Shown here one piece after another: positions 24,634-28,285 of a DNA stretch of 64,000 bases. Below the pieces are notes generated by a model. The model saw nothing but the letters and a program-made list of their open reading frames with translations. It was not told the DNA's origin and did no database searches. Position 1 is the first letter of the stretch, and every line of letters starts with the position of its first letter. The translations under genes and the position numbers were made by a program. Origin of the DNA: a virus (taxonomy: Duplodnaviria; Caudoviricetes); IMG/VR virus record IMGVR_UViG_3300009873_000001; one strand, 5' to 3'.

Positions 24634-26214
24634 GTGGCCAGCAGGAACCCACAGCTCGAGCTCTTCTTTGGCGGCGGGCCGGGCAGCGGCAAGCCGTCAT
24701 TGTTCACAGGCCGCGCGATCAAGCTCGGCAAGAGCAAACGCAAGCAGGCCAGACGGATCTATCTCGAAGGCCTGTGGCTGGCGCGCTCCGAGTTCGAAGC
24801 TGGCGGCAAGATCACCGTCCTGGTGAACGAGAAGGACAAGACGGTCACGCTCCTGCTCGACCCGCGTGGCGAGCGCACGATCTCCGGCAAGACGAAGCGC
24901 GGGAAGCGGATCCCGGTGATCGACCTCGAGCTACCCGAGCTCGACAGGTTGTTCTCCAGCGCAGAGCAGCTGGTGGTCAGGCCGGCGGCCAAGCGCGGCG
25001 AGATCGTGATCTCGCGCAGCGACGCCGAGCGCATGCGCGAGGAGCGACGCCGGGCCAGGCCGAACGATATGGAAGTCTCGCTCTACAGCGGGGCTGGGCT
25101 GCTCAGCTTGGCAGCCAACATGGCCGGTGCCAGGACGGTGCTCGGGATCGAGAAGTGGGACGAGGCCAGGGCGGCGTTCGAATCGCTGCACCACGCACCA
25201 ACCCTTCCGGTGGGCGTGGAGGAGGTCGCGCTCGGCGAGGCGATCCGTCCGGGCTCTTGGGGCATGCCGCGCACGCCGTGGCTGCTGACGGCTGGCGTGC
25301 CCTGCGAGCCGTACAGCAAGCTCGGCGGGAAGGGGATCGAGGCCAGCGATCCGCACGAGCTGGCAGACCAGATCTACTGGACGTTGCTCCTGATCTTGGC
25401 CGTGAATCCGCAGAACATAGTGATCGAGAACGTGCCACAGTTTCTGCGCACGGCCGGTGGCTTCGTCCGGGCCCTTGCCTACCTCGGCTATCACGTCTAC
25501 GCAGCGGAGATCGATCCCTACGCCTACGGCTACGTGACCGGCCGCACGCGAGCCGTGCTCGTGGCCACGACGGACGCGGCCGAGCCGTTCCCGCAGCCGC
25601 GACGTCGCGGCGAGCGCGTGACGGAGTTCCTCTTGCCGCCGGAGTCACGGCTGCTCTACGAGCTTCCAGAGAGGCAGGGCGGGTGGTTCTCCGTGGCTGA
25701 CGGGGAGCGGAAGCACAAGGCCTGGGTGGCCGCTGGCCGGCCAAAAGACAAGCCCACGGGAATCGACGTGAGCCTCTACCAGTGGCTCCACGGCCTGGAC
25801 GCAGAGGGTCGCAAGAAAGAGAGCTTCTCCAAGCCCACGATTGTGGAGTACGACGACGACCGGATTCCTGCCGTGCCGAAGTCCATGTGGAAAGGCAGTC
25901 CGACCGGCCCCTACGTTCACCACCCTCGCAAGCGAGACCTGTATCGGTTCCTGACTGTGGAGGAACTGCGCCGGATCCATGGCGTTCCCGAGCGGGCCGC
26001 GGCGCGTCTGCCAGGCCAGGAAGACTACGCGCTGGCCACCCAGCTCTACGGGCAGGCCGTTCACGTCCCGATCTTCACCGAGATCATTGAGCGGTTGCCG
26101 GGAGGGCGGCGGCACAAGAAGACGATCACCGCCGAGAATCCATTCCCGGTCGTGCCGCTGTGGTACGGCTACGGCCCGCTCTTCACGACGATTCCGTGGG
26201 GCGCGATTAGGTGA
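24634..26214 (+). CDS. DNA (cytosine-5) methyltransferase with extra N-terminal domain
   Basis: Motif I LYSGAG, motif IV GVPCEPYS, motif VI ENV, motif VIII R-T-R, RFLTVEE..IHG and motif X GQAV. Confidence 0.9.
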   Translation: MASRNPQLELFFGGGPGSGKPSLFTGRAIKLGKSKRKQARRIYLEGLWLARSEFEAGGKITVLVNEKDKTVTLLLDPRGERTISGKTKRGKRIPVIDLELPELDRLFSSAEQLVVRPAAKRGEIVISRSDAERMREERRRARPNDMEVSLYSGAGLLSLAANMAGARTVLGIEKWDEARAAFESLHHAPTLPVGVEEVALGEAIRPGSWGMPRTPWLLTAGVPCEPYSKLGGKGIEASDPHELADQIYWTLLLILAVNPQNIVIENVPQFLRTAGGFVRALAYLGYHVYAAEIDPYAYGYVTGRTRAVLVATTDAAEPFPQPRRRGERVTEFLLPPESRLLYELPERQGGWFSVADGERKHKAWVAAGRPKDKPTGIDVSLYQWLHGLDAEGRKKESFSKPTIVEYDDDRIPAVPKSMWKGSPTGPYVHHPRKRDLYRFLTVEELRRIHGVPERAAARLPGQEDYALATQLYGQAVHVPIFTEIIERLPGGRRHKKTITAENPFPVVPLWYGYGPLFTTIPWGAIR

Positions 26215-27908
26215 CAAGCGTCGCACGGAACGCGCGCTTCGAGGGGGTCAAGCGCAGCGCCGAGCAGGGCTATGCTCTGACGCCCACGCCGCCGCTCGTG
26301 AAGCCGCGGAAGAAGCTCAAGGCCCTGCCGGTCAGCGCCGTCAACGCGGTCTACGAGTACTTGGTCGATCAGGCCTACTGGCGCGCCAAAGCCGTAAAGG
26401 ATCACATCCTGACCGGGCGCCCCACGCTCGAGGAAATGTCCTGGGAGTTCCATGCCGTTCCGCGCGTGATCGAGCTGTGGATCCGTCAGGCGCGTGAGGT
26501 CTGGCAGCAAAAGGGCGAGATCGGCGTGCCGACCCCGCAAGCCTTCCGACCTGAGGAGCTCGTCATACCAAAGGGCGTGACCTACTTTGCCAGCGGTTCC
26601 GAGGACTCCCCGGGCACAATCCATGGCATGGCCAAGCTAGGGATCGGCGTCGGGGTCACGGTCGAGAACTGCAGGGCTGGCTCGCAATGCTACTTGGCGG
26701 TCAAGCAGCTCAAGCGCGGCAAGGCGCCGGTGTTCGTGGATTCCGGCGCGTTCAGCGAAGTCGCGTTCGACGAGCGTTCGGGCAAACTGCGGCTCGTTCC
26801 AGGCAAAGAGATCACTCACGAAGAATGGCTCGAGATCTTGTCGGCCTACGAAGACTTCGTCCAAGCTCTCGGCGGGCGAGTGTACCTGGTCGCTCCGGAC
26901 CTGGTCGGGTCGCAGGAGGGTACGCGCAAGCGCATGAAGCGCTACGCGCCGCAGGTTCGCGAAGCCGCTCGGCACGGAGCCAAGATCCTAGTGCCCGTTC
27001 AGCGCGGCAGGAAGTCAGGAGCACAGTTCTACAAGGAAATGCTGGGGATTCTGAAGATCCCAACCGCGCAGGCCGTGGCGGCAATCCCCATGAAGAAGGG
27101 TGCTGCCAGCCTCGAAGACCTCGAAGAGTTCTTGCGCTCGGCTCGCAAGCTCAAAGCGATCCATCTGCTTGGCGTCGGGCCTGGGCGCAAAGACATATCG
27201 AAAGACCGAGCTGGCACTGGTTCGGTCACAGCCGAAGAGGTAATTGCCAGGGTTCGCCAGCTGGCCCCGCGCGTCAAGATCTCTTGTGATTCCGTCCTGG
27301 TCAAACGCGGAGTCGGGCGCGGGTTCTTGAGCGTCGATCCTGAGGTCTACACCTACGCTCAAGACCTCGTGCGCTATGAGCTCATGCACGAGGCCTTTCA
27401 GAAGTCCTACATAGGCGGTTTGAGCCTGGAGAACTGGATCGAGAATGTCGGCTGGGATATGGAGCTGGTGCCCGACTACACCGACAATATCGTCGAGACG
27501 GTGAACGCATGGCTGCCGGGCGTCTACCGACGCATGCTGGCGGATCACGTAGGCAGGGATCTTGCCCGGACATACAGGACCAAGTTCGGGAAGGCCGAGC
27601 GCGAACTGTTACTGAAAGACCCAGAGGACTGGCTCCGCAGCCCGATCTGGCCAGACGAGCCTGGGCGCTCCTGGTATGACGATCCGACGATCTCGCAGTG
27701 GCTCGACGAGCAGTGGGCGCACTTCCTGGCCGCGTACTACGCCGCCGCGATCAAGCGCGACGCAATCGAGCGGGCCTGGAAGGTTCGCAGCGCCGAAGCC
27801 ATGAAGCGCGCCTTGCCTGTCGAGGCGACGGAGCGAGCGATTCAGCGAGTCATGTTCGCCGGGTTCGAGGGCAGTCAAGTGAGCCTGTTCGCAGGTGGCT
27901 CATCATGA
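26211..27908 (+). CDS. tRNA-guanine-transglycosylase-fold (DpdA-like) base-exchange protein
   Basis: VFVDSGAFS, APDLVG, VPVQ, IHLLGVG and SCDS motifs in TGT order; adjacent to a DNA methyltransferase. Confidence 0.7.
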   Translation: MTSVARNARFEGVKRSAEQGYALTPTPPLVKPRKKLKALPVSAVNAVYEYLVDQAYWRAKAVKDHILTGRPTLEEMSWEFHAVPRVIELWIRQAREVWQQKGEIGVPTPQAFRPEELVIPKGVTYFASGSEDSPGTIHGMAKLGIGVGVTVENCRAGSQCYLAVKQLKRGKAPVFVDSGAFSEVAFDERSGKLRLVPGKEITHEEWLEILSAYEDFVQALGGRVYLVAPDLVGSQEGTRKRMKRYAPQVREAARHGAKILVPVQRGRKSGAQFYKEMLGILKIPTAQAVAAIPMKKGAASLEDLEEFLRSARKLKAIHLLGVGPGRKDISKDRAGTGSVTAEEVIARVRQLAPRVKISCDSVLVKRGVGRGFLSVDPEVYTYAQDLVRYELMHEAFQKSYIGGLSLENWIENVGWDMELVPDYTDNIVETVNAWLPGVYRRMLADHVGRDLARTYRTKFGKAERELLLKDPEDWLRSPIWPDEPGRSWYDDPTISQWLDEQWAHFLAAYYAAAIKRDAIERAWKVRSAEAMKRALPVEATERAIQRVMFAGFEGSQVSLFAGGSS

Positions 27909-28285
27909 AGTACGAGGCCACGCACGTCGTAGACCCTAGAGCCTTTGAGCAGCTGGTCCGTGTGGCCGGCGGGCGCGAGGAGCAATGGCAGAAGAAGCCG
28001 TTCTCTTACCGAGGCGCTTTGTTTTACCCGGGCATGATCGGGCTCTACCAGATTACAGCCGCTGAGCTGGTGCCAGCAGAGCAGTACCGAGGCAAGGCCT
28101 TCAGTGACCCATTCGGATCGTTCTCGCGGCCTGGGTTCTTGAAGCGGATCGGGCAGCGGTCGTACGTGTTCGCCGGATTTCACCGATTCGTGCTCGAGGG
28201 CACGCACCTCTCCGCGCTAGAACCAGAAGAAGGGCGTCCGGCGCCGCCTGACGGAAGTCAGGCAACGCTGTTCGCGGAGCCATGA
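27905..28285 (+). CDS. Hypothetical protein with C-terminal QATLF
   Basis: ATGA overlap with both neighbours. Confidence 0.65.
   Translation: MKYEATHVVDPRAFEQLVRVAGGREEQWQKKPFSYRGALFYPGMIGLYQITAAELVPAEQYRGKAFSDPFGSFSRPGFLKRIGQRSYVFAGFHRFVLEGTHLSALEPEEGRPAPPDGSQATLFAEP

Follow-up and report, generated by a model that had tools for sequence, protein, structure and literature searches.

Three neighbouring genes of a large uncultured mobile or viral element, encoding a cytosine DNA methylase, a DpdA-like base-swapping enzyme and a small protein of unknown function, each carry at a flexible end a short peptide of the type used by bacterial proteins to hold on to the DNA sliding clamp, so DNA marking in this element is, by inference, probably physically tied to DNA replication. 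The analysed stretch of DNA (64 kb, hereafter the window) is part of a contig reported as 273,580 bases. The features of the locus are listed in the table below.

Coordinates and features of the module in the window
Position	Strand	Feature	Basis
24634..26214	+	C5 cytosine DNA methyltransferase, 526 aa; GTG start preceded by GGAGGAG; N-terminal docking-type peptide, variable basic linker, conserved N-terminal domain of about 100 aa without a Pfam match, methylase domain at residues 148-488	PF00145, E 4.5e-19, 69.5 bits against a cut-off of 22; phrog_116; GVPCEPYS and IENVPQF read directly and invariant in homologues; 12 homologues
24652..24666	+	QLELF (CAG CTC GAG CTC TTC), N-terminal clamp-binding-type motif, residues 7-11	Kept as QLELF, QSELF, QLPLF, QIELF, IPLF or RDLF in homologues; docks in the DnaN cleft in the co-fold
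24691..24705	+	KPSLF, second and weaker LF peptide in the same N-terminal tail, residues 20-24	Only partly kept (PSVF, PTVF) in close relatives
26211..27908	+	DpdA/TGT-superfamily TIM-barrel protein, 565 aa; probable DNA base-exchange (transglycosylase) enzyme with helical N- and C-terminal extensions and a disordered tail	AF2 pLDDT 89.4, tail 546-565 below 50; best VIA match 7UI4 DpdA, Z 14.5; hhalign to phage 9g DpdA Prob 68.7%, E 4.5e-5
26211-26214		GTGA, 4-nt gene overlap
26571..27308	+	TIM-barrel catalytic core, residues 121-366, with invariant D177 (VDSGAF), D230 and D360	Structural and profile alignments; 60 homologues
27876..27890	+	QVSLF, C-terminal clamp-binding-type motif, residues 556-560 of 565	Sequence; terminal motifs in homologues
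27905..28285	+	126-aa protein of unknown function with a disordered linker (residues 99-117, pLDDT below 50) and a C-terminal motif	Only 3 relatives among 1.84 billion representatives; poor AF2 model, pLDDT 55
27905-27908		ATGA, 4-nt gene overlap
28259..28273	+	QATLF, C-terminal clamp-binding-type motif, residues 119-123 of 126	The 66%-identical relative has GSQVSLFAE although the preceding linker is rewritten
28282..28848	+	Fourth coupled gene, 188 aa: N-terminal peptide (MQPDYAALLAFY), basic linker and conserved C-terminal domain; no QxxLF	Homologous to the 175-aa protein of the related locus L005, whose N-terminus is MVFWDLPPDP plus a basic run
28282-28285		ATGA, 4-nt gene overlap

The observation made in the original prediction, namely that three consecutive coupled genes each possess a terminal QxxLF peptide, was confirmed upon direct reading of the DNA, the motifs lying 3-7 residues from a terminus. 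The Q..LF pattern occurs only 10 times in all six frames of the 64 kb and 5 times in about 20,300 residues of likely genes. According to an analytic estimate based on the amino acid frequencies of the window itself, 0.18 of 69 genes should have such a motif within 12 residues of an end, and the probability that three adjacent genes all have one is about 1e-6. All three peptides fit the published definition of the canonical beta-clamp-binding motif, Q-aliphatic-x-[L/M]-[F/L] (PMC11139829), although Ala at position 2 of QATLF represents a weak variant, which is also seen in QADMF of Pol III alpha. A PIP-box reading of the QLELFF stretch was rejected, because its spacing does not fit Qxx[ILM]xx[FY][FY].

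The review cited above also notes that such motifs sit in disordered N- or C-termini, and the predicted disorder of the DpdA-like tail and of the linker in the 126-aa protein, as well as the linker of variable length following the methylase N-terminus in homologues, agree with this. Conservation of the motifs in relatives, which had been set as a check beforehand, was found, but it is not universal. The motifs persist in an 83% relative while the flanking linkers diverge, and all three are kept in the related locus L002. Methylase homologues of about 50-58% identity retain N-terminal QSELF, QLPLF and QIELF, and in the methylase homologues a QxxLF or xxLF is followed by linkers of very different length. 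In L005 the frame upstream of the called methylase start reads TRPLFPG, and the DpdA-like protein of this locus ends with AALFPGL. Several full-length relatives lack Q (RPLFPG, AALFPGL) or use other terminal peptides (AFDLPDLGSW, FFDLPD), and some have no recognisable tail. Of 111 homologues of the middle protein, 22 carry a strict motif within 25 residues of an end (15-fold over the internal rate, a count inflated by relatedness among the sequences), at either terminus, for instance QLSLF, QLSLL, QLGLF, QMSLL and N-terminal QLSIF, and five more carry the hexamer type (Q-phi-x-[L/M]-x-[F/L]), QLTLAL or QMTLPL. Some of these homologues lie in non-viral mobile contexts next to RadC and DUF3560.

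Docking of the methylase peptide, the only one of the three that was folded, was predicted by co-folding its residues 1-35 with an alignment of a Myxococcota-like DnaN. The co-fold scored 0.61 (runs 0.61, 0.66 and 0.51) against 0.01 for the best of 3 controls; the mark of the co-fold was reached by 58 of 80 solved complexes and by 2 of 110 mismatched pairs, although these counts hold only roughly, since our own alignments were used. The runs agreed in at least 41% of contacts and the partner pLDDT was at least 49. Residues 6-11 (PQLELF) were placed in the canonical cleft, touching the DnaN residues that map to T172, G174, H175, R176, L177, P242, V247, N320, V344, V360 and M362-R365 of E. coli, that is, to subsites I and II as listed in PMC11139829. 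However, clamp-peptide complexes are abundant in the PDB, and the result may therefore reflect memory of solved complexes and only show likeness to known motifs; besides, the DnaN used comes from a MAG in which the contig of a 40%-identical relative was binned, and not from a proven host.

The middle protein was called TGT-like in the original prediction, and this point needs a correction in so far as neither Pfam (including TGT, PF01702) nor PHROGs recognized it, so that the assignment had to be established by fold and profile comparison, and it was. A profile search of PDB sequences returned nothing at E up to 1, and Foldseek alone was ambiguous, ranking xylose-isomerase-like barrels first, whereas VIA re-alignment of the structures put DpdA (7UI4) in the first place (Z 14.5, rmsd 3.2, 195 aligned residues, 20% identity), followed by archaeal, bacterial and human TGTs at Z about 13. 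D177 (with F181 as F99 in DpdA), D230 and D360 are invariant in 60 homologues and align, with moderate confidence, with LDSGAF, LDG and CDS of phage 9g DpdA, i.e., with the three active-site Asp known from DpdA (D95, acid/base; D130, base recognition; D256, nucleophile; PMC10164549). The structural Zn site (a Cys cluster plus His after the nucleophile) is lacking, as no Cys follows C359 in the protein and no Cys is invariant across the 60 homologues. No 7-deazaguanine precursor genes (FolE, QueD, QueE, QueC) were found among 34 window proteins scanned, though the window comprises only 64 of 273 kb and ‘singleton’ DpdA phages exist (PMC6884629); in three relatives a PAPS-reductase-like PP-loop protein follows the module. 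The search of Pfam and PHROGs also gave no family for the third and fourth proteins of the module, and PHROGs gave nothing useful for ten large neighbouring proteins. For the 126-aa protein no usable Atlas hit was obtained. The locus by blastn and the barrel core by tblastn found no match in 50,697 deposited phage genomes. Among canonical phage DpdAs, seven lie directly upstream of a phage beta-clamp gene and a DNA polymerase gene, and all seven end in -LF at or within three residues of the C-terminus, while two actinophage DpdAs that sit next to ParB do not. The tail of phage 9g DpdA reads LQDLFDE, and the N-terminus of the 9g polymerase reads GFFWEDLPP.

Taken together, these data allow us to propose, with fair though not high confidence, that the three terminal peptides are beta-type sliding-clamp-binding motifs on flexible tails, which would let the methylase, the DpdA-like enzyme and the small protein hook into the hydrophobic cleft of a DnaN-type clamp, with LF in subsite I and Q plus the aliphatic residue in subsite II. 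Clamps are loaded at replication forks and left behind on new DNA; in this view, the enzymes would be concentrated on freshly made, still unmodified DNA of the element and would slide along it, the likely purpose being to escape host restriction. What the analysis itself establishes is the presence of the motifs, their non-random placement, conservation, family-wide recurrence and disordered context, and the identity of the enzymes at family level, whereas docking in the cleft is a prediction, and physical binding, the host clamp as a partner, co-replicative modification and insertion of a 7-deazaguanine base are inferred. The interpretation given in the original prediction, that modification enzymes are tethered to the host clamp to mark nascent viral DNA, is therefore only partly supported: the clamp-binding nature of the peptides is favoured by their consensus, disorder, conservation, enrichment and co-fold, but the host origin of the clamp (one encoded elsewhere in the 273-kb element cannot be excluded), the viral nature of the element, the role of the third protein as a DNA-modification enzyme and the action on nascent DNA are not shown. 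As for the viral nature, no tailed-phage hallmark was found: the Terminase_6N, HK97 capsid and PolB models hit other contigs of the genome G001, but not its 190-kb contig C66, which is related to the window. It should also be considered that the fourth coupled gene carries a different N-terminal peptide, so another docking system coexists here.

Less likely, the peptides dock on a hub encoded by the element itself, such as its own sliding clamp or replisome protein, or a virion or assembly component packaging these enzymes for delivery with the DNA. Only a part of the element is visible, canonical phage DpdAs sit beside phage-encoded clamps, and the genes lie among collagen-like, structural-looking ones; moreover, relatives swap the peptide type in several module proteins at once (QxxLF here, PLFPG and FFDLPP in the related loci L005 and L003), which fits co-evolution with an element-encoded partner. 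On the other hand, the motifs match the bacterial consensus closely and recur in relatives from non-viral mobile contexts, no DnaN-N, DnaN-C, gp45-C or PCNA-N domain was found on contig C66, and tblastn with six clamps found nothing in the window. An own beta-type clamp would still make this a clamp-tethering system. Still more doubtful is that the peptides mainly serve to occupy or hijack the host clamp, the 126-aa protein acting, for example, as a competitive plug that displaces host polymerases and repair enzymes and shuts down host replication. The tail is the only recognisable feature of this protein, which has no recognisable enzymatic fold and almost no relatives, and phage proteins targeting the clamp are known (e.g., Twort Gp168, as cited in PMC11139829); however, two of the three carriers are clear DNA-acting enzymes, for which tethering is the simpler benefit, and a single weak motif such as QATLF is a poor competitor according to the mutational data summarised in the same review. 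Finally, although short motifs arise easily and some relatives lack them, coincidental low-complexity ends without function are very unlikely considering the placement, the conservation through linker turnover and the terminal enrichment of the motifs.

If the proposed tethering is real, it offers a simple and testable answer to two open questions, how phage and plasmid DNA gets modified fast enough to escape restriction and how a base-exchange enzyme such as DpdA finds its sites on double-stranded DNA, since the enzymes would ride the ring left on newly made DNA. It would add DNA methylases and DNA transglycosylases to the clients of the bacterial beta clamp, offer a sequence rule for telling DNA-directed TGT-like enzymes from tRNA-directed ones (a TGT-like barrel plus a terminal clamp motif), and predict that clamp-pocket inhibitors would sensitise such elements to restriction. 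Full-text literature searches on DpdA and the sliding clamp, and on clamp-binding DNA methyltransferases and DnaN, revealed nothing relevant. A broader generalization, not excluded but tentative and somewhat less likely than not, is that mobile elements of bacteria (large phage-like elements, conjugative elements, Queuovirinae-type phages) generally couple anti-restriction DNA modification to the replication fork by giving C5 methylases, DpdA-type base exchangers and PP-loop enzymes such peptides. A whole module of clients would then share the clamp ‘tool-belt’, the peptide type (QxxLF, PLFPG, FFDLPP, -ELF-COOH) would co-evolve with the clamp in use, and this prokaryotic counterpart of DNMT1-PCNA would explain how base-exchange enzymes reach complete modification of new DNA.

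Among the described systems, the bacterial beta-clamp clients with QL[S/D]LF-type motifs (Pol II QLGLF, Pol IV QLVLGL, UmuC QLNLF, MutS QMSLL, Hda N-terminal QLSLPL; PMC11139829) share with the proteins studied here the consensus, the position in disordered termini and the predicted docking in subsites I and II, and some relatives carry literally the same pentapeptides (QLGLF, QMSLL, QLSLF). Here, however, the carriers are DNA-modifying enzymes of a mobile element and not polymerases, repair or initiation factors, three or more putative clients are encoded side by side in one coupled module, and the 2024 review does not mention a methyltransferase or transglycosylase. In DNMT1 of animals, the eukaryotic maintenance methylase, a C5 cytosine methylase is, as proposed here, tethered to the sliding clamp through a short peptide in its N-terminal region (PIP-box), which couples methylation to replication, but the clamp (trimeric PCNA versus dimeric beta), the motif (Qxx[ILM]xx[FY][FY] versus QxxLF) and the origin are different, and the likely purpose here is protection from restriction rather than epigenetic maintenance. 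With the DpdA DNA preQ0 insertases (Salmonella Montevideo DpdA, PDB 7UI4, PMC10164549; phage 9g, Seurat and CAjan DpdA, PMC6884629) the middle protein shares the TIM-barrel core and the aligned active-site Asp, and phage DpdAs also end in -LF and neighbour clamp genes, while the absence of a Pfam TGT hit and of the Cys cluster, the helical extensions of about 120 residues at the N-terminus and about 200 at the C-terminus, the fact that no preQ0 genes are seen among the window proteins scanned and the absence of the family from deposited phage genomes at tblastn level set it apart. In T4/RB69, several functionally unrelated proteins of one virus (gp43, gp33 and gp55, with C-terminal LDFLF-type tails) share a terminal hydrophobic peptide that docks on the sliding clamp gp45; the clamp type and the motif differ from those considered here, and the clients there are a polymerase and transcription factors.

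The four genes of the module are co-directional and overlap consecutively by 4 nt. The first protein begins with MASRNPQLELFFGG, the second ends with GSQVSLFAGGSS, and the third ends with GSQATLFAEP. The original prediction, according to which three consecutive genes each encode a terminal QxxLF clamp-like motif, was confirmed, and the coordinates proposed for the motifs were exact. The pattern Q..LF occurs only ten times in all six frames of the window. Calculated from the amino acid frequencies of the window itself, 0.18 of 69 genes should carry it within 12 residues of an end, while the odds of three adjacent genes doing so are about 1e-6.

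Positions of the features in the window and in the related loci
Sequence	Position	Feature
Window	24634-26214	Gene 1, 526 aa
Window	26134-26214	Methylase C-terminus
Window	26211-27908	Gene 2, 565 aa
Window	27905-28285	Gene 3, 126 aa
Window	28282-28848	Gene 4, 188 aa
Window	51515-52633	372-aa protein ending EMQADGLFGIG
Window	749-1129, 2734-3342, 52680-53597, 53594-54043	Proteins sharing an N-terminal x-x-L-T-M-x-[ES]-L peptide
Window	46790-48862 (-), 54040-54774, 61294-62031, 60901-61197 (-), 59067-60071 (-)	Ser/Thr protein kinase, dual-specificity-phosphatase-like protein, FHA-domain protein, GroES and a second C5 methylase
L003 (distant relative)	10001-10060	Start of the DpdA-like protein
L003; L005 (distant relatives)	L003:13501-15174; L005:9337-9864, 9869-11683	Module proteins beginning with the second peptide class
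L037 (Archangium MAG locus)	1797-2399, 10980-11537	Two unknown proteins with clamp-motif-like ends: C-terminal QALLF and N-terminal QLDFF
L047 (phage 9g)	36-2009	DNA polymerase
L047 (phage 9g)	3007-3960	DpdA
L047 (phage 9g)	9945-11948	Helicase
L048-L053 (other phages)		DNA polymerase starts; DpdA genes

Gene 1 encodes a C5 cytosine methylase, as it was recognized by PF00145 (69.5 bits over residues 148-488) and by phrog_116. The methylase domain is preceded by a conserved region of about 100 residues with no Pfam match. The C-terminus of the protein (NPFPVVPLWYGYGPLFTTIPWG) is conserved in homologs, and in L003, which lacks the methylase, the DpdA-like protein starts with the same peptide (YYGAGPLYSALPW); the tail therefore seems to belong functionally with the DpdA-like protein. 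The second C5 methylase of the element has no terminal clamp motif.

The product of gene 2 gave no hit in Pfam or PHROGs and no match among PDB sequences, although 111 homologs were found. An AlphaFold2 model built on 60 of these homologs is confident (pLDDT 89.4), with a disordered tail at residues 546-565. Foldseek showed only that the predicted structure is a TIM barrel, whereas VIA re-alignment ranked the DNA preQ0 insertase DpdA (7UI4) first (Z 14.5, rmsd 3.2, 195 residues, 20% identity), followed by tRNA-guanine transglycosylases at Z about 13. A profile comparison with phage 9g DpdA (Prob 68.7%, E 4.5e-5) aligned VDSGAF with LDSGAF, APD with LDG, and CDS with CDS, i.e., the three aspartates identified as the acid/base, base-recognition and nucleophile residues (PMC10164549). 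The corresponding D177, D230 and D360 are invariant in the 60 homologs. The Zn site is absent, as no Cys follows C359. We therefore designate the protein DpdA-like, without assigning it to DpdA proper or naming the base; it probably works as a DNA base-exchange enzyme. No preQ0 genes were found among the 34 window proteins scanned, the window covering only 64 kb of a contig reported as 273,580 bases. Distant homologs of the barrel core (24-33% identity) lie on large, often conjugative plasmids (plasmid hits H2, H4 and H5 in Cupriavidus, and Pseudomonas megaplasmids), some of them within proteins annotated as LPD1 domain-containing (polyvalent-protein type).

Gene 3 is an orphan, while the product of gene 4 has a different N-terminal peptide followed by a basic linker and a conserved domain. 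Elsewhere in the window, the 372-aa protein without a Pfam or PHROG hit ends with a QAxxLF peptide of the clamp-loader delta type (QAMSLF), and is a possible further clamp client. The proteins with the x-x-L-T-M-x-[ES]-L peptide end in a hydrophobic helix plus a basic tail and look like a family of tail-anchored membrane proteins. Relatives lie in Myxococcota MAGs.

The terminal peptides are conserved. A relative with 83-90% identical enzymes (L002) keeps all three motifs, although the linker before the third one is rewritten there. Methylase homologs at about 50-58% identity begin with QSELF, QLPLF, QIELF, IPLF or RDLF, followed by linkers of very different length, and one homolog whose called start lacks the peptide has TRPLFPG in frame just upstream. 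Among the 111 DpdA-like proteins, 22 have a strict motif within 25 residues of a terminus, which is 15-fold above the internal rate, and five more have the hexamer form; since these sequences are related, the count is not a count of independent events. The motifs include QLSLF, QLSLL (six times), QLGLF and QMSLL at C-termini, and QLSIF and QLTLL at N-termini. Appearance at either end, in different clades and in different contexts, argues for repeated selection for one partner. One such context is an Archangium MAG locus (L037) with RadC and DUF3560, typical of conjugative elements, where a short DpdA-like gene product ends with QLSLLPA.

Canonical clamp-binding motifs are defined as Q-phi-x-[L/M][F/L], or the same with one extra residue, and are located in disordered termini; LF alone is reported to be able to bind, and the delta subunit lacks the Gln (PMC11139829). 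All three window peptides fit this definition. Methylase residues 1-35 were co-folded with DnaN from a 7-Mb MAG that holds a related contig, using for the latter an alignment of 22 DnaN sequences. The score was 0.61 (runs 0.61, 0.66 and 0.51), compared with 0.01 for the best of three controls. This mark was reached by 58 of 80 solved complexes and by 2 of 110 mismatched pairs, although these counts hold only roughly because our own alignments were used. The runs agreed in at least 41% of contacts, and partner pLDDT was at least 49, so the partner's own fold is uncertain. In the predicted complex, partner residues 6-11 (PQLELF) contact DnaN residues that map to E. coli T172, G174, H175, R176, L177, P242, V247, N320, V344, V360 and M362-R365, i.e., the published subsites I and II. 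Since many clamp-peptide complexes are solved, this result shows likeness to known motifs, not binding.

A second class of terminal peptides was revealed in the more distant relatives L003 and L005, where the module proteins carry [AG]FFDLP[PD] or FWDLPPDP followed by a basic run at their N-termini, or AFDLPDL or SDLPL at their C-termini. One of these carriers is a PAPS-reductase-like PP-loop enzyme. The DNA polymerases encoded next to the Queuovirinae-type clamps (9g-, Seurat- and JG054-type phages) start with the same kind of peptide, MR.DAIGFFW.DLPP plus a basic linker. This suggests a second clamp or replisome docking peptide, which remains a hypothesis. The phage 9g helicase, in turn, ends in DFDDDIPF, the C-terminal tip peptide of bacterial SSB.

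Taken together, the presence of the three motifs and their non-random placement are established by the sequence analysis, whereas docking in the clamp is predicted only, and binding itself is inferred. The proposed interpretation, namely that modification enzymes are tethered to the host sliding clamp to mark nascent viral DNA, is partly supported: with moderate confidence, clamp binding is the best-supported explanation of the peptides, and co-replicative marking is a reasonable inference, while the host clamp as the partner and the viral nature of the element remain presumptive.

Full-text searches found no paper linking DpdA or a bacterial DNA methylase to the clamp, and the 2024 clamp review (PMC11139829) mentions neither enzyme class. 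At the same time, in phage 9g and six other phages, whose hosts span Pseudomonas, Escherichia, Sphingomonas, Vibrio, Microcystis and Sinorhizobium, the canonical dpdA gene lies directly upstream of a phage beta-clamp gene and the DNA polymerase gene. Every one of these DpdAs ends in -LF at or within three residues of the C-terminus (LQDLFDE, IQELF, VMELF, VADLFS, IQGLF, QPELF and ERRLF), while two actinophage DpdAs that sit next to ParB do not. In comparison with the published list of clamp clients, the module described here would employ a known docking system, the bacterial QxxLF form, and would differ in its carriers, with a DNA methylase as a client and several clients encoded in one module.
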